Shown here piece after piece: positions 54,975 to 61,157 of a DNA stretch of 64,000 bases. The notes under the pieces were generated by a model. That model was not told where the DNA came from and did not search any database. It saw only the letters and a program-made list of their open reading frames with translations. The stretch lies in NCBI GenBank assembly GCA_002869165.1, contig PKTK01000001.1, positions 318,005 through 382,004 of the forward strand, read 5' to 3'. How positions within the stretch are numbered: position 1 is the stretch's first letter; the number at the start of each line of letters is the position of its first letter. Source of the stretch: Candidatus Parcubacteria bacterium (lineage in GTDB: Bacteria; Patescibacteriota; Patescibacteriia; Patescibacteriales; UBA12075). The translations under genes and the position numbers were made by a program.

Positions 54975-55046
54975 GGCCCCTTCGTCTAGTGGTTAGGACG
55001 CGAGGTTCTCATCCTTGAAACAGGGGTTCGATTCCCCTAGGGGTCA
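54975..55046 (+). tRNA. tRNA-Glu (anticodon CUC)
   Basis: Hand-folded cloverleaf. Acceptor GGCCCCT/AGGGGTC, D arm GTCT/GGAC, anticodon stem CGAGG/CCTTG with loop TTCTCAT, 4-nt variable region, T arm AGGGG-TTCGATT-CCCCT. CCA is not encoded. Confidence 0.9.
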
Positions 55047-55206: not shown

Positions 55207-55232
55207 TTCGATTCCCCTAGGGGTCACAAATA
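55207..55232 (+). repeat. 26-bp direct repeat of the tRNA-Glu 3' end (att-like)
   Basis: TTCGATTCCCCTAGGGGTCACAAATA at 55027-55052 (T-loop through 6 nt past the tRNA) is repeated exactly at 55207-55232. The upstream part of the tRNA is not repeated. Confidence 0.9.
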
Positions 55233-55854: not shown

Positions 55855-57099
55855 ATGGAAGTAGAAAAAGTGGAAAGTGATTACAGGTTTCATTTAAAAG
55901 ATGCAATTTTGGGAATGCAGATGTTATTTGTTGCTTTTGGAGCCTTAGTTTTGGTGCCTTTGATAGTTGGCCTTAATTCAAGCGTGGCATTATTCACAGC
56001 TGGAATAGGTACTTTAATTTTTCAAGTATGCACTAAAGGAAAGGTGCCAATATTTTTGGCATCAAGTTTTGCATTTATCGCGCCAATGATATACGGTATT
56101 CAAAACTGGGGAATTCCAGCAACGATGTGCGGGTTAATGGCAGCAGGTTTTCTGTATATTATATTAAGCTTACTTATCATGTATTTTGGCGTAGGTTTTG
56201 TTCACAAAATTTTTCCACCAATAGTTACAGGTCCGGTACTTATGACTATTGGGCTGTTACTGGTTAGTGTGGGAGTTAATATGGCTATAGGAAAAACAGG
56301 AGACGGCGCAGCTGTCTTAGTACCCTACCCTACAGCTATAAGTGTTTCAATGATTACCTTGATTGTGGCTATTTTTGTGGCTGTGTCCAGAAATAAGTTT
56401 CTAAGCTTAATACCGATATTTTCTGCAATTATCGCGGGCTATATTGTTTCAGTATTTTTTGGTTTAATTGATTTTTCAAAAGTAGTTTCTGTTCCATGAA
56501 TTCAAATTCCGGCCTTTACATTACCAGAGTTTAATTGGCAGGCAATTTTGTTTATTGCTCCAGTTGCTATTGCTCCAGCAATTGAGCATTTTGGTGATGT
56601 AATTGCAATAGGTTCAGTAACTAAAAAGGATTATCTTACTGACCCCGGAATAGACAAAACATTGCTTGGTGATGGGATTGCAACTATGGTAGCTTCTTTT
56701 CTTGGTGGGCCACCAAATACAACTTATTAAGAGGTCACAGGAGCAGTGGCTTTAACAAAAGCTGTTAATCCTGCAATTATGACCTGGGCAGCAATATGTG
56801 CAATACTTTTCGCTTTTGTTGGAAAATTGAACGCTGTTTTGGCGACAATCCCGGTTCCAGTTATGGGAGGCATAATGATTCTTTTATTCGGAATCATAGC
56901 ATCGGTAGGAATAGGAAATATTGTTCGAGGCAAGGTAGATATGTCAAAACCAAGAAATATGGTAATAGCTGCTGTACCTCTTGGTTTCGGTATAGGTGGA
57001 ATGATATTCCAGGCTGGAAGTTTTAAATTAGGAGGGATTGCCCTGGCAGGAATTTCAGCAGTAATTTTGAATTTAATTCTTCCAAACAATAAAGAGTAA
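55855..57099 (+). pseudogene. NCS2-family uracil/xanthine permease, interrupted by in-frame TGA (56497-56499) and TAA (56728-56730)
   Basis: Three track ORFs (55855-56499, 56548-56730, 56746-57099) share one frame and together give a colinear ~414-aa permease (...AIEHFGD...GGPPNTTY*EVTGAVALT...PVPVMGGIMILLFG...). Confidence 0.8.
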
Positions 57100-57204: not shown

Positions 57205-57546
57205 ATGAACAAGCAAAGATCTACACTTATAACGGCTACTAATTTATCATCTTCTCAAATAAGAGGAATGAAATTTAGGGTGAAAAATTTTTTAAACAAG
57301 AAAGTTGGCACAATCAAGGCATTCGAGATTGAAAAGACTAACGAAAGTCTTAATCCTTTCTATAGTTTAAAACAAGCACTTCCAGGGAAGAGAGTTCGGG
57401 TCTGTATAATCGATGAAGGTATGAAAATCATCAGAGTAAAAGATGTTTTGAAGCCTGAAAGTACTAATGATGAAATATGTAGAATTATCAGTAACATGGA
57501 TGTAATTACAGTCATTTCTCCAGAAACATTATTAGAATTTGTATAA
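57205..57546 (+). CDS. hypothetical protein
   Basis: 113 aa. Strong SD (AAAGGAGGAAAAA). Terminator follows. Confidence 0.55.
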   Translation: MNKQRSTLITATNLSSSQIRGMKFRVKNFLNKKVGTIKAFEIEKTNESLNPFYSLKQALPGKRVRVCIIDEGMKIIRVKDVLKPESTNDEICRIISNMDVITVISPETLLEFV

Positions 57547-57552
57547 AGAAGT

Positions 57553-57585
57553 AAACCCTCTATTTTAAAAAGAGGGTTTTATTTT
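57553..57585 (+). terminator. rho-independent terminator
   Basis: AAACCCTCT, 9-nt loop, AGAGGGTTT, T-rich tail. Confidence 0.75.
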
Positions 57586-57592
57586 GAGAATC

Positions 57593-57621
57593 TTGCCAAA
57601 TTTTAAATATCGTGATAATAT
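57593..57621 (+). promoter_or_regulatory. candidate promoter with extended -10
   Basis: TTGCCA (57593-57598), 17-nt spacer, TAATAT (57616-57621) preceded by TGa. The predicted start falls at about the ATG of the leader ORF. Confidence 0.45.
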
Positions 57622-57628
57622 ATTTTAT

Positions 57629-57700
57629 ATGAATAATTTAAACATCAAAAACACAGGAAACTTTTGGTTTTACTTTTACGGATTTAGACGTGAAGGTTAG
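57629..57700 (+). CDS. candidate 23-aa leader peptide rich in aromatic codons
   Basis: MNNLNIKNTGNFWFYFYGFRREG*. It has 4 Phe, 2 Tyr and 1 Trp codon within 8 consecutive codons (57662-57685). No SD, possibly leaderless. Confidence 0.4.
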   Translation: MNNLNIKNTGNFWFYFYGFRREG

Positions 57701-57763
57701 TTTTTGTTGTATAAATTGATTCAAAATTAGAACTGACCTTCAAAGAGATGAAGGTCATTTTTT
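57691..57763 (+). promoter_or_regulatory. candidate transcription attenuator (alternative antiterminator and terminator hairpins)
   Basis: TGAAGGTTAG (57691-57700) can pair over 10 bp with CTGACCTTCA (57733-57742). TGACCTTC (57734-57741) also pairs with GAAGGTCA (57750-57757), which is followed by TTTTTT. Confidence 0.45.
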
Positions 57764-57805
57764 GTTGTTTTAAAATATCTTTTTATCAACAAAAGGAGGA
57801 TAAAC

Positions 57806-57982
57806 ATGACTTTATTTGCAGGTAGAGCAGCCAATCAAAGCTTGTTGGGGATGAAAGAAGAAAGTGAAAAAATACAAGTCGCAAAAAATAAAGAAATGAA
57901 AATAATTAAAACTCAAGGTAGCGCTGATCTGGGTCCTGATATTAAAAAAAAGCAAAAAGAAGTGTTTATTGTTGATATTTAG
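57806..57982 (+). CDS. 58-aa hypothetical protein (not in the ORF track)
   Basis: ATG 57806 preceded by AAAGGAGGA. MTLFAGRAANQSLLGMKEESEKIQ...KEVFIVDI*. An 11-bp hairpin follows. The antisense track ORF 57812-58012 is less plausible. Confidence 0.55.
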   Translation: MTLFAGRAANQSLLGMKEESEKIQVAKNKEMKIIKTQGSADLGPDIKKKQKEVFIVDI

Positions 57983-57987
57983 AAATA

Positions 57988-58014
57988 AGGTGCCTATAAA
58001 AAATATAGGCACCT
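57988..58014 (+). terminator. strong hairpin after the 58-aa ORF (weak U-tract)
   Basis: AGGTGCCTATA-AAAAA-TATAGGCACCT, followed by ATTTAAAA rather than a clean T-run. Confidence 0.45.
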
Positions 58015-58039
58015 ATTTAAAAAGTTAAAAAATTATATA

Positions 58040-58125
58040 GTCATTGTGATTGATTGAATTTTTCAAGAAATTAAACGAATGTCTTCAAATAGATATTGCT
58101 TCGTCACTTCTTTCCTCACAATGAC
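58040..58125. mobile_element. MITE-like element with 10-bp terminal inverted repeats
   Basis: GTCATTGTGA (58040-58049) and TCACAATGAC (58116-58125) flank ~66 bp that includes TGCTTCGTCACTTCTTTCC. It ends 12 nt before the pheA ATG. Confidence 0.55.
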
Positions 58126-58137
58126 TTTTAAATCACT

Positions 58138-58701
58138 ATGAAGATTGGTATTTCGGGAAACAAAGGAAGTTTTTCTGAGGAAGCAGCTAATTATTACTGC
58201 CTAAAAAATAAACAAGAAAATTGTGAATTACAGTTTTTGATTGGCGTAGAAAACGCTTTACAAGCTTTAACAGATGGAAAAGTTGGAAAAGCAATTTTTC
58301 CTATTGAAAATTCGAATGGTGGAGCTGTTATTGAGGCTTTGTATGCAATGGCAAACCATATTTTTATAATTGAAGAAATATTTGAGATTGATGTTAAACA
58401 TAATCTTCTAATAAAACCAGGAACAAATGCTGGTAATATTAAAAAAATCGTATCCCATCCTCAGGCTCTCAAACAATGTCGAATGTATCTAAAAAGAAAA
58501 TGGGAAGAAGTTGAGCTTGAGGAATATTCTGATACTGCCTCAGCTGCTGAGGATTTGAGTACTGGAAAACTCAATCAGGATTGTGCAGTAATTGCTCCTA
58601 AAGTCTGCTCCCCTATCTATGGTCTGGAAATTCTAGAAGAAGATATTCAAGATTTAAAATTTAATTATACTTCGTTTATAAGCGCTACTAGTAAATCTTA
58701 A
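58138..58701 (+). CDS. pheA: prephenate dehydratase, catalytic PDT domain only (no ACT domain)
   Basis: GNKGSFSEEAA, PIENSNGGAV, SHPQALKQC, NYTSF follow the PDT pattern. 187 aa, then several stops in a row. Confidence 0.8.
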   Translation: MKIGISGNKGSFSEEAANYYCLKNKQENCELQFLIGVENALQALTDGKVGKAIFPIENSNGGAVIEALYAMANHIFIIEEIFEIDVKHNLLIKPGTNAGNIKKIVSHPQALKQCRMYLKRKWEEVELEEYSDTASAAEDLSTGKLNQDCAVIAPKVCSPIYGLEILEEDIQDLKFNYTSFISATSKS

Positions 58702-58754
58702 TGATAATCTACAAAGCAAAGCAAACCTGAAAATATTAATATTGATGTTCTTTA

Positions 58755-58886
58755 TCATTCCTGCGGAGGCAGGAATTAAGAAAAGTGCGGTAGATGGTAA
58801 TGTTAATATTTGCAAAGTAATTTTGTTCAATTATAAATTTTAAATATAATTTCATAGTAGGTAGATTCCTGCCTCCGCAGGAATGA
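58755..58886. mobile_element. MITE-like element bounded by a perfect 22-bp inverted repeat
   Basis: TCATTCCTGCGGAGGCAGGAAT (58755-58776) and its exact reverse complement ATTCCTGCCTCCGCAGGAATGA (58865-58886). Each arm is itself an 8-bp-stem hairpin. Confidence 0.65.
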
Positions 58887-58898
58887 ATAAAAAAATAT

Positions 58899-59924
58899 AT
58901 GAAAAATAAAAAAATATTAATAATAGGTTTTTGTAATTTTGGAAAATTGGCTACTAGTATATTGGCTAGAAATTTTGATGTTTCTGTTTTGTCCAGAACG
59001 GTAAACAATGAAGTTAAAAGACAAATAGAAAAATGTGGAGCCAAAATTGCTGATAATAATTCAGTAAAGCAAGCTGATGTTGTTGTTTTGTGTGCTCCAA
59101 TTTCAAAAACTGAAGAAATTATCAAGAAAATTGCCCCAAAAATGAAGGCAGATTCCCTCTTATTTGATACTAGTTCAGTCAAGGTTTTGCCATGCAAGTG
59201 GCTAAAAGAAAATACCAGAGAAGATATCGAAATAGTAGGCACTCATCCAATGTTTGGTCCTACAACATCAAAATTTGATCTTGAAAAACAAAGCTGGCAA
59301 CTTGACGGTTTGCAAATTGTTTTGTGCCCCCTAAGGACAAAAGAAGAAACTTTGGAAAAAATCCGAAGTTTTTTAAATTCCTTGAATTTGAAAATTATTG
59401 AAACAAGCCCAGAAGATCATGATAAGCAAAATGCCAAGACCCTGTCATTTGTTCATTATGTGGGCAGGTCTTTGCTTGCTTCAAATATTGGACATCAGGA
59501 AATATTTACCCCAGGGTACATTGATTTACTATCAATTCTTCCTCACACAACAAGCGATAATTGGCAGTTGTTTTATGATATGAACAACTACAATCCTTAT
59601 TCAGCACCTCTAAGAGAGATATTTCGGGATGCGGGCTTGAAGATAGAGGAAAAAATTATCATGAATTCAAACAAAGAAGAACTAGAGAAGCAAAGAGAAA
59701 TGATAGATTTGATAGATATGCGCATCATGAAATTACTTGAAAGTAGATTAGAACACACAAAGCAAATTGGTGAATATAAAAAGGCTAAAAATATTGATAT
59801 AGTTGATAAAAAGCGTGAAGATGATATTATAAAAAATAAGCAAGAAAAGACAAGTCTTGATGATAAATTTATAAAAAAGTTATATAGACTTATTCTCGAT
59901 GAGTCTTATAAGACACAAGAATAA
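58899..59924 (+). CDS. tyrA: prephenate dehydrogenase fused to C-terminal chorismate mutase (CM type 2)
   Basis: Rossmann start ILIIGFCNFG, GTHPMFGP. The last ~85 aa (QREMIDLIDMRIMKLLESRLEHTKQIGEYK...DKKREDDII) match the AroQ-type CM. Confidence 0.8.
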   Translation: MKNKKILIIGFCNFGKLATSILARNFDVSVLSRTVNNEVKRQIEKCGAKIADNNSVKQADVVVLCAPISKTEEIIKKIAPKMKADSLLFDTSSVKVLPCKWLKENTREDIEIVGTHPMFGPTTSKFDLEKQSWQLDGLQIVLCPLRTKEETLEKIRSFLNSLNLKIIETSPEDHDKQNAKTLSFVHYVGRSLLASNIGHQEIFTPGYIDLLSILPHTTSDNWQLFYDMNNYNPYSAPLREIFRDAGLKIEEKIIMNSNKEELEKQREMIDLIDMRIMKLLESRLEHTKQIGEYKKAKNIDIVDKKREDDIIKNKQEKTSLDDKFIKKLYRLILDESYKTQE

Positions 59925-60065: not shown

Positions 60066-61157
60066 ATGCTATCAGAAAATATTAAAAAACTAGAAGAGTC
60101 AGGTATTAGAAAGGTTTTTAAAATGGCTATGTCACTAGACAAGAAAAAGTCTATTAATCTTTCTATTGGTCAGCCTCATTTTGAGGTAAGCAAAGAATTG
60201 AAAGAATTGGCAACTGAAGCAATTAATGATGACTATAACTCCTACTTCCCTACCGAAGGATATTTGCCACTTAGAAAAAAGATTTGTAAAAAGCTAAAAG
60301 AGAAAAATAATATAGACGCTGATGAGGATGATGTAATTGTCACAGCTGGAGTTAGTGGAGCAATACACCTCTTGTTTAGTTCAATTATAAATGAAGGGGA
60401 TGAAGTAATACTACCTGATCCATATTTTGTACTATACGAACAGATTATGAAGTTACTAGGAGCTAAAATTGTGTATCTTGATACTTATCCTGACTTTCGG
60501 ATTAATCCTCAAAAACTCGAGTCATTAATTAGCAATAAAACAAAACTGTTAATTATAAATTCTCCTAACAATCCAACGGGAATAGTTTACTCAGAATCTG
60601 AATTAAAAGAAGTGGCTCAAGTTGCCAGTAAACACGGTTTACTTGTAATGTCTGATGAGATTTATGAAGATTTTGATTTTGATAAGAAGTTTTTTAGTAT
60701 CGGAAGTATATATGATAATACAGTAACTTTAAATGGTTTTTCAAAAAACCTAGCAATTACAGGCTGGCGCCTTGGCTATGCTCATGGTCCCAAAGAGATA
60801 ATTGAAGCTATGAATAAACTACAGATGTATACTTATGTTTGCGCACCTAGTTTTGCGCAACTTGCAGTTTCTCAACTGGATGAAATAAAGACGGGTTTTG
60901 ACTATAGGAAAAATAGAGATTTAGTGCTTGAAAGACTAAAAGATAAATACGAATTCAATATTCCAGAGGGAGCTTTTTATGCCTATATAAAAATTCCAGA
61001 AGGAAAAAAAGATTTTCTTGATCAATTGTACAAAGAAAATGTACTGGTAATCCCTGGGGGTGTTTTTTCTCAAAAAACCGGCTATTTTCGACTATCATTT
61101 GCAGTTAATGAAATGGAGCTCAGAAGAGGATTGGAAGTTTTTAAAAAGTTAGTATAA
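60066..61157 (+). CDS. class I/II PLP aminotransferase (aromatic/aspartate type by context)
   Basis: NSPNNPTG, SDEIY, NGFSKNLAITGWRLGY. Adjacent to pheA and tyrA. Confidence 0.8.
   Translation: MLSENIKKLEESGIRKVFKMAMSLDKKKSINLSIGQPHFEVSKELKELATEAINDDYNSYFPTEGYLPLRKKICKKLKEKNNIDADEDDVIVTAGVSGAIHLLFSSIINEGDEVILPDPYFVLYEQIMKLLGAKIVYLDTYPDFRINPQKLESLISNKTKLLIINSPNNPTGIVYSESELKEVAQVASKHGLLVMSDEIYEDFDFDKKFFSIGSIYDNTVTLNGFSKNLAITGWRLGYAHGPKEIIEAMNKLQMYTYVCAPSFAQLAVSQLDEIKTGFDYRKNRDLVLERLKDKYEFNIPEGAFYAYIKIPEGKKDFLDQLYKENVLVIPGGVFSQKTGYFRLSFAVNEMELRRGLEVFKKLV

Follow-up and report, generated by a model that had tools for sequence, protein, structure and literature searches.

Within a 64,000-nucleotide stretch of a Candidatus Parcubacteria genome (contig PKTK01000001.1, positions 318,005 to 382,004 of the forward strand; this whole stretch is hereafter called the window), a 23-codon open reading frame (ORF) dense in aromatic codons lies ahead of genes for the synthesis of phenylalanine and tyrosine. 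This raises the question of whether the short ORF senses the supply of aromatic amino acids and sets the transcription of the genes behind it. The analysis presented here indicates that the element is very probably a ribosome-mediated transcription attenuator of the leader-peptide type, governed by the supply of aromatic aminoacyl-tRNA. A first-pass annotation of the window had proposed such an attenuator, and this interpretation gains support from an ORF, terminator and antiterminator that are conserved and covary, and from the aromatic gene context of the element in relatives. Leader-peptide attenuation is textbook knowledge, with documented cases mainly proteobacterial. The GC content of the window is approximately 32%, and the nearest relatives were all found to be metagenome-assembled genomes of the Patescibacteria, or Candidate Phyla Radiation (CPR). 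These are uncultivated bacteria with reduced genomes, whose gene regulation has hardly been described.

Promoter and leader ORF

All coordinates given by the first-pass annotation in the leader region were found to match the sequence, including those of the aromatic ORF and of the TTGCCA-17-TGaTAATAT promoter that it had named (Table 1). The amino acids encoded by the codon run are Phe, Tyr and Trp, and the downstream genes of the window make Phe and Tyr. The absence of a Shine-Dalgarno (SD) sequence, also claimed at first pass, was borne out by a check for the tetramers GGAG, GAGG, AGGA and AAGG, none of which occurs within 18 nt of the leader ATG; an SD-like tetramer is likewise missing in 27 of the 28 aromatic leaders of the family described below.

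A good TTGACA-16/17 nt-TAnnAT promoter ending 6–9 nt before the ATG was identified for approximately 12 of these 28 leaders. In the subtype to which the window belongs (the window and loci L020, L102 and L105, L numbers denoting loci of relatives), the distance from the -10 box to the ATG is 6–7 nt in all four members, with a -35 box at the same distance as in the window (TTGCCT, TTGCTT or TTGAAA in the three relatives). As the -10 box ends 6–7 nt before the ATG, the transcript is predicted to begin at or next to the AUG. It therefore probably starts at or beside ATG 57629 and would be leaderless, as the first-pass annotation had suggested, the promoter spacing in the four members of the subtype being consistent with this.

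The 5’ limit of the leader unit is set by the terminator of an upstream gene for a 113-aa protein. Since this gene is terminated at 57555–57585, the terminator at 57734–57757 must end a transcript begun within the interval of approximately 150 nt between them. No other ATG ORF with an aromatic run (at least 6 of 9 residues) and a following terminator was found in the 64-kb window, and neither a scan for runs of any amino acid followed by a terminator nor the covariance model described below gave a credible further leader in it.

Mutually exclusive RNA structures in the leader

The segment 57625–57775 was found to fold with a minimum free energy (MFE) of -40.2 kcal/mol (z = -5.5), a stability reached by none of 200 shuffled sequences. 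In this fold the long stem P1 is formed (-16.3 kcal/mol as a duplex), in which the start codon is buried once pairing has taken place, and which encloses a weak hairpin at 57657–57671. A second hairpin enclosed by P1, 1’:2’ (-9.2 kcal/mol), has its 5’ arm in the Tyr-Phe-Tyr-Gly codons, while its 3’ arm sequesters the 5’ arm of the antiterminator; a counterpart of this hairpin was identified in L020, L102 and L105.

The antiterminator consists of 14 bp including two G-U pairs, with an energy of -18.6 kcal/mol as a duplex and -17.6 kcal/mol when closed as a hairpin. The terminator has a 9-bp stem with four GC pairs, a 6-nt loop and a T6GTTGTTTT tail, at -12.9 kcal/mol. Through their shared bases the two structures (-18.6 versus -12.9 kcal/mol) are mutually exclusive. 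Of 1000 dinucleotide shuffles of 57660–57725, a single one pairs as well with the 5’ arm of the terminator. With an anti-antiterminator, an antiterminator and a terminator all present, the leader has every part that a classical attenuator requires.

The pairing segments of the first-pass annotation, TGAAGGTTAG (57691–57700), CTGACCTTCA (57733–57742) and GAAGGTCA (57750–57757), lie where it had placed them; what it called segment 1 is segment 2 in the four-segment naming used here. Its 10-bp antiterminator pairs as described and extends to 14 bp (57691–57704 with 57729–57742), and its terminator is present with other dimensions, the stem having 9 bp and the loop 6 nt in place of 8 bp and 8 nt. 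The two-way switch that it had drawn holds as far as it was described, P1 and hairpin 1’:2’ having been overlooked.

Table 1. Features of the leader, of its surroundings in the window and of related leaders (window positions unless a locus is given)
Feature	Coordinates	Strand	Details
-35 box	57593–57598	+	TTGCCA; 17 nt from TAATAT
Extended -10 box	57613–57621	+	TGaTAATAT; TG 57613–57614, TAATAT 57616–57621; ends 7 nt before ATG
Leader ORF	57629–57700	+	23 codons; MNNLNIKNTGNFWFYFYGFRREG; stop codon TAG 57698–57700
Regulatory codon run	57662–57685	+	F12 W13 F14 Y15 F16 Y17 G18 F19; 7 of 8 aromatic
P1 5’ arm (anti-antiterminator)	57630–57652	+	ORF codons 1–8; in MFE fold; pairs with 57701–57724
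P1 3’ arm	57701–57724	+	overlaps antiterminator 5’ arm by 4 nt
Hairpin 1’:2’	57672–57697	+	9 bp; ACUUUUACG (57672–57680) with CGUGAAGGU (57689–57697); in MFE fold
Antiterminator 5’ arm (segment 2)	57691–57704	+	UGAAGGUUAGUUUU; last sense codons and stop codon
Antiterminator 3’ arm (segment 3)	57729–57742	+	AGAACUGACCUUCA; 57734–57742 shared with terminator 5’ arm
Intrinsic terminator	57734–57771	+	stem 57734–57742 with 57749–57757; loop AAGAGA; then TTTTTTGTTGTTTT from 57758
Terminator of upstream 113-aa gene	57555–57585	+	AAACCCTCT and AGAGGGTTT, then T-run
58-aa orphan ORF (first downstream cistron)	57806–57982	+	strong SD AAGGAGG 57793–57799
11-bp hairpin after 58-aa ORF	57988–58014	+	no T-run on + strand
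pheA, prephenate dehydratase	58138–58701	+	187 aa; PF00800, 3e-45, residues 3–182
tyrA-CM, prephenate dehydrogenase with C-terminal chorismate mutase (CM)	58899–59924	+	PF02153 and PF01817
Class I/II aminotransferase	60066–61157	+	PF00155, 1e-64
Sister leaders with other codon runs	L034:172–309; L084:1274–1421; L053:484–626 and 1009–1167; L025:902–1046; L081:1807–1939; L045:1286–1439; L079:1276–1430; L049:566–706		covariance model

Ribosome position and switching in silico

The effect of a translating ribosome was modelled by masking its footprint (P-site -12 to +15) together with all RNA behind it and computing base-pair probabilities. With no ribosome, the probability of the terminator was 0.98, and with the A-site upstream of the codon run it was approximately 0.8. 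With the A-site on F12, W13, F14, Y15, F16 or Y17, the antiterminator was favoured instead (probability 0.88–0.97), and from F19 to the stop codon the terminator returned with a probability of at least 0.95. In the model, read-through is thus obtained by stalling at precisely these six consecutive aromatic codons, and the effective sensing positions of the run are F12–Y17 (57662–57679). The switch is this clean only if, as is classically assumed, no RNA pairing takes place across a stalled ribosome.

A kinetic proxy, namely the pairing state of the 5’ arm of the terminator in the nascent transcript, gave the same result. In all 30 family members tested, this arm was found to be sequestered until the ribosome clears the codon run, and to be freed within 1–3 codons thereafter.

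Conservation of the leader in relatives

A blastn search with the leader against 16 GTDB species-representative loci (prephenate dehydratase, PDT, 55–77% identical to that of the window) returned no similar DNA, and a crude scan of all their reading frames for aromatic runs yielded no clear leader amid the noise of AT-rich sequence. The leader emerged with closer relatives, obtained through a protein database, and with the requirement of an ATG ORF and a terminator. Homologous leaders were identified in L020, L017, L019, L102, L103 and L105, the PDT of which is 76–80% identical to that of the window; the closest PDT relative (P0003, 81%) lies outside this leader comparison. Locus L020 is syntenic with the window, with def, fmt and a tRNA followed by pheA, tyrA-CM, an aminotransferase and csp. 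Its leader consists of TTGCCT, 17 nt, TAAAAT, 6 nt and the ATG of the peptide MTLINKQNSLFFWFYFYGFSHKG, and is then followed by a terminator of quite different sequence. The leader peptides of the window subtype in L102 and L105 are MINNKQKTFTNFWFYFYDFGRKG and MIKNIQKTFTSFWFYFYGFSPKG, and those of L017 and L019 are MDKKLQKNYFFFGFWYFMSPGRSFFCNVLKN and MNKTLQKTNFFFGFWYFTSPRRSVFCDVSMN. The peptide motif FWFYFYGF is almost invariant among the four closest homologues.

A mechanical scan of 80 further metagenome loci, requiring an ATG ORF of 10–45 codons with at least 6 of 9 residues aromatic and a terminator within approximately 130 nt, found the element repeatedly on the PDT strand. Counting the Patescibacteria loci with at least 700 nt of sequence upstream of PDT, an aromatic leader with a terminator is present upstream of PDT in 36 of 75, versus 2 of 79 downstream control regions. 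Over 28 leaders, the runs comprise 156 F, 54 Y and 23 W residues. A covariance model (R1) built from 12 sequences, with the window excluded, scores the window at 49.6 bits (E approximately 6e-7). Conservation of the leader ORF and of the alternative pairing in relatives had been set beforehand as a check on the first-pass proposal, and both were found.

In two loci (L002:1211–1333, 71.8 bits; L029:2911–3052, 45.1 bits) P1 and the terminator are recognisable and the ATG and aromatic run are gone; these copies are apparently decayed elements.

Covariation

Alignments made with MAFFT alone (A2, A3) had a poor structural register, RNAalifold retrieving only part of P1 and the terminator from them, and their place was taken by a covariance-model alignment of 26 hits. 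In this alignment, the positions of P1, the inner stem and the terminator are paired in 84.2% of cases, versus 66.6% for shuffled sequences and 43–54% with the partners slid, and 34 of 39 modelled pairs have changed on both sides (19 of 20 in P1, 11 of 13 in the terminator). As the alignment was fitted to these three structures, it is biased towards them. The antiterminator is not part of the model, so that the alignment was not fitted to it; here 72.8% are paired versus 66.5% for shuffled sequences, with 0 of 500 shuffles reaching the observed value, and 44–56% when slid, and 14 of 17 pairs have changed on both sides.

Comparisons made free of any alignment gave the same picture. Segment 2 pairs with the segment 3 of its own leader at an average of -20.3 kcal/mol, versus -12.3 kcal/mol with the segment 3 of other members, and the corresponding values for P1 are -19.5 and -11.8 kcal/mol. 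Within the window subtype, GAAGGUUAG/CUGACCUUC of the window is replaced by AGGGUUAG/CUGGCCC in L020 and L102 and by AAGGUUAG/CUGACCU in L105, with the 3’ arms of the terminators changing in step. All helices covary, the antiterminator included.

Genes probably controlled by the leader

The aromatic leader was found directly before pheA in five loci (L041, L048, L069, L081 and L087) and directly before the gene for 2-amino-3,7-dideoxy-D-threo-hept-6-ulosonate (ADH) synthase in four (L024, L030, L053 and L061), with dehydroquinate synthase II following ADH synthase in L061. It precedes the DAHP synthase gene in L049 and in L096, where it is divergent from pheA. That the leader abuts different genes of the aromatic pathway ties the family to aromatic amino-acid synthesis. 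Two aromatic leaders each were observed in L049 (1275–1418 and 1569–1696) and L087 (32–162 and 843–990); those of L049 are approximately 300 nt apart, the second being followed by the DAHP synthase gene and then pheA.

In the window, pheA, tyrA-CM and the aminotransferase gene are likely to be co-transcribed with the leader, because no promoter-like or terminator-like site was found on the + strand by a sequence scan of 57950–59800. These genes follow the 58-aa ORF in the order given by the first-pass annotation; their control by the leader, which it had also assumed, would need read-through of the 11-bp hairpin behind that ORF. Hairpins of a similar kind, likewise lacking a T-run, hold the same place in L020, L017 and L019, and the hairpin of the window probably leaves read-through unblocked.

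The PDT of the window consists of the catalytic domain only, with neither an ACT regulatory domain nor a chorismate mutase fusion. Its close relatives from the protein search are likewise confined to the catalytic domain and are of similar length (185–211 aa). As the ACT domain is missing, feedback by Phe at the level of the enzyme may be missing too, in which case transcriptional sensing would matter more.

Proposed mechanism

From these features we infer the following course of events in the cell, the sensed signal being the charging of tRNA-Phe, tRNA-Tyr and tRNA-Trp. Transcription would begin at ATG 57629 or next to it, giving a leaderless RNA, and a ribosome would enter the 23-codon ORF while RNA polymerase proceeds. 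When aromatic aminoacyl-tRNAs are abundant, the ribosome would reach the stop codon (57698–57700) and cover segment 2 (57691–57704), upon which the segment 3:4 terminator (57734–57757) would form ahead of its T-run and transcription would end near 57763. A ribosome stalled with its A-site on F12–Y17 would instead have melted P1 and hairpin 1’:2’ and left segment 2 free to form the 14-bp antiterminator with segment 3. The terminator would then not form and the polymerase would pass into the 58-aa ORF and, by further read-through, into pheA, tyrA-CM and the aminotransferase gene. If the leader were not translated, P1 and hairpin 1’:2’ would hold segment 2, making termination the default. P1 would also bury the 5’ AUG once 57701–57724 had been made, which would admit one early ribosome only, and that ribosome would thereby be synchronised with the polymerase.

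Weight of the evidence and alternative explanations

Several observations weigh against this mechanism. If pairing across the ribosome is allowed in the model, P1 and the terminator re-form for A-site positions from F14 onward, although a helix closing around a 70S ribosome is assumed here to be unlikely. In a subfamily with 15-bp terminators, full-length equilibrium folding always favours the terminator, so that kinetics must be invoked there; the nascent-transcript test is a more suitable proxy than such folding. For the ORF, which lacks an SD, leaderless initiation is a prediction from promoter geometry. About half of the relatives, L001 and L002 among them, have no leader upstream of PDT or have a decayed one. 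In the window itself, the 58-aa orphan ORF and the 11-bp hairpin come before pheA, which starts approximately 375 nt past the T-run of the terminator with no recognisable SD. The small ORFs that follow many copies leave some doubt, and sister leaders with Ile, Val or Leu runs are likewise followed by a small unknown ORF, with no obvious ilv or leu genes. Finally, the host is an uncultivated metagenome-assembled genome.

The element could be read otherwise, as an attenuator governed by a bound ligand or protein (a riboswitch, or a T-box-like or TRAP/PyrR-like leader) in which the bound factor decides and the ORF is incidental. The RNA does have much structure, its fold resembling a three-way junction with a terminator downstream, TGGTTTTACTTTTACG and GGTTAGTTTT are highly conserved at the nucleotide level in the window subtype, and the ORF lacks an SD. 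No riboswitch, T-box or protein-binding leader of Rfam was matched at a noteworthy threshold, however, and an in-frame ATG ORF is kept in every member despite diverging nucleotide sequence and length. It is precisely the loop between P1 and segment 2 that varies; the central run within the family is conserved in composition and not in order, sister elements have Leu, Ile or Val codons in its place while keeping the scaffold, and the boundary of antitermination follows the end of the run in each of the 30 members examined. Control by a bound factor is accordingly considered very unlikely.

We consider it even less probable that the element is an independent gene of approximately 135 nt for a trans-acting small RNA, with no regulatory role for the adjacent Phe/Tyr genes. 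Its own promoter and strong terminator and its default fold, which is the terminated form (probability 0.98), would suit such a gene, and attenuated leader transcripts are known to serve also as small RNAs in other bacteria. The two roles are compatible. Against a role as a small RNA alone stand the conserved antiterminator alternative and the strict, strand-specific linkage to aromatic biosynthesis genes (36 of 75 upstream regions versus 2 of 79 controls). Least probable of the three is that the ORF encodes a small peptide, hydrophobic or aromatic, with a function of its own, such as a membrane peptide resembling type I toxins, or the precursor of a signal or of a ribosomally synthesised and post-translationally modified peptide. 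The long 5’–3’ stem would then govern translation in the manner of hok and tisB mRNAs, and the terminator would just end a small gene. Such a peptide would fit the near invariance of FWFYFYGF in the four closest homologues, the start codon inside a long-range stem, the unit having a promoter and terminator of its own, and the length of some sister peptides with Val or Ile runs, which suffices to cross a membrane. The aromatic run of approximately nine residues is nevertheless too short for a transmembrane helix and is flanked by polar or charged residues (N, K, R, E), the family keeps only the aromatic composition, and a simple gene needs no covarying antiterminator overlapping its terminator. 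The genes found right behind the element on the same strand furthermore include pheA and those for DAHP synthase and ADH synthase, and promoter-like matches on the minus strand, counted as sequence matches only, are at chance level (8 versus 5.2 +/- 2.2 expected).

Comparison with known attenuators

At the gathering thresholds of Rfam 15, only tRNA reaches its score in the window and in 20 relatives, and no riboswitch, T-box or other curated cis-regulatory RNA family does so. The Phe_leader model (RF01859) aligns over its full length to 57643–57763 with 30.1 bits (E = 0.005 for 601 nt), which is below its gathering score of 55 bits and does not make the element a member by the Rfam criterion. 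This full-length match nonetheless points towards an attenuator. Apart from Phe_leader, an E-value scan of 57540–58140 gave only weak unrelated matches; a partial match of the rnk_leader model at its terminator end reflects only the hairpin of the upstream gene, and a SNORD70 match at 58037–58128 is spurious and stems from an 11-bp inverted repeat described below. A full-text search, which was not exhaustive, found no published attenuation or leader peptide in Patescibacteria, CPR or Parcubacteria. The leaders thus form an uncatalogued family of a well-known mechanism, in a phylum for which no report was found.

Classical attenuators consist of four segments (1:2, 2:3, 3:4), have codons that match the end products of their operon and terminate by default when not translated. 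The window element resembles those of the trp, his, leu, thr and ilv operons in this four-segment logic and in a codon run that fits the pathway, and its sister leaders with Leu, Ile and Val runs recall leuL and ilvL. It differs in belonging to an independent sequence family, with no Rfam gathering score reached by the leaders of the window or the 20 relatives, in that one homologous scaffold bears different codon runs, in the tandem arrangement of leaders and in the small orphan ORFs that often follow them. To our knowledge, proteobacterial leaders of different operons cannot be aligned with one another.

A close parallel is pheL-pheA, which likewise has a short ORF with a Phe run, a Rho-independent terminator, an exclusive antiterminator and an anti-antiterminator upstream of prephenate dehydratase, with the position of the ribosome deciding the outcome. 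The pheL attenuator has been reported in gamma-proteobacteria, with few candidates outside the proteobacteria, and that of E. coli has an SD (PMC3082878). In contrast, the ORF of the window lacks an SD and a leaderless start is predicted for it, its family has a run that mixes Phe, Tyr and Trp where pheL has Phe alone, and segment 1 begins with the second base of the ORF. The host moreover belongs to the Patescibacteria, and the pheA of the window lies behind an extra small ORF and encodes neither a chorismate mutase nor an ACT domain. In mycobacteria, leaderless short ORFs with polycysteine runs act as attenuators (bioRxiv 10.1101/834739). Shared with the window element, in its proposed role, is a short regulatory ORF that opens a leaderless transcript, is rich in codons of one class and makes the downstream operon genes respond to the supply of the amino acid concerned; phylum, amino acid and sequence family are different, and the leaderless start in the window is a prediction from promoter spacing. 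The window element has an evident intrinsic terminator with a covarying antiterminator.

Sister leaders with other codon runs

The covariance model also identified sister leaders with runs of other amino acids (Table 1), for example MKQVNQKNLLGLLLLLLQRVACFSINKI (Leu), MINNFKTTQILNVSVVVVVILVVVVLLPGCLNI (Val) and MKIIQRIQIIIINIIQIIIIDNQLLHSLKT (Ile), several of which lie in tandem upstream of an aromatic leader. In the scaffold that they share with the aromatic leaders, the 5’ end of the ORF forms a stem whose loop holds the codon run (aromatic, Leu, Ile or Val), and the antiterminator and terminator complete it. Runs of Leu, Ile and Val on the same scaffold are as expected of a device that reads codons. 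A broader proposal, that these elements make up a modular family of probably leaderless attenuators across the CPR clade, with interchangeable runs, often in tandem and each with a small fast-evolving ORF between it and any biosynthesis gene, is put forward tentatively and is judged possible rather than probable. If it were true, the reach of ribosome-sensed amino-acid starvation in these reduced symbionts would extend beyond biosynthetic enzymes, and the family would be indirect evidence of tight coupling of transcription and translation in CPR cells. With its Leu, Ile and Val runs, its tandem copies and its orphan first cistrons, the family may be of wider interest than one attenuator would be.

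The aromatic leader itself suggests that translation and transcription are coupled closely enough in CPR for a ribosome to steer RNA polymerase, and that aromatic amino-acid synthesis in this group is regulated by tRNA charging, with a sensor ORF that may start without a 5’ leader. In the annotation of CPR metagenomes, the family could point to regulons of aromatic and, it appears, branched-chain amino acids, and the compact element (approximately 135 nt) could be studied in cell-free systems.

Gene neighbourhood of the leader in the window

The 58-aa orphan ORF has no Pfam match and no homologue except itself among 5.8 billion clusters, which makes it unusable as a synteny anchor. Relatives have small ORFs with strong SDs in its place, but of unrelated sequence. 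Several of these small ORFs have C-termini that end in (I/T)GW in L020, L071, L102 and L103 and in GGADL in L017 and L103.

Between this ORF and pheA, a stable structure was identified at 58039–58129, closed by a perfect 11-bp inverted repeat (AGTCATTGTGA at 58041–58051 with TCACAATGACT at 58118–58128) and ending 9 nt short of the ATG of pheA. Folding of 57983–58140 gave a z of -7.2. This structure could influence the translation of pheA or the stability of its mRNA.

Upstream of the leader, a xanthine/uracil permease is broken across three reading frames (55855–56499, 56548–56730 and 56746–57099). The first and third pieces, which were the two covered by the Pfam scan, match PF00860, and the split represents either a pseudogene or assembly frameshifts. 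The tRNA at 54975–55046 ends in GGGGTCACAAAT, and the same 12-mer occurs again at 55220–55231 after an apparent T-arm fragment. In L020 the aromatic leader directly follows the tRNA, whereas in the window the two are separated by approximately 2.5 kb containing a 138-aa ORF, the broken permease and the 113-aa ORF, which suggests an insertion at the tRNA in the window.

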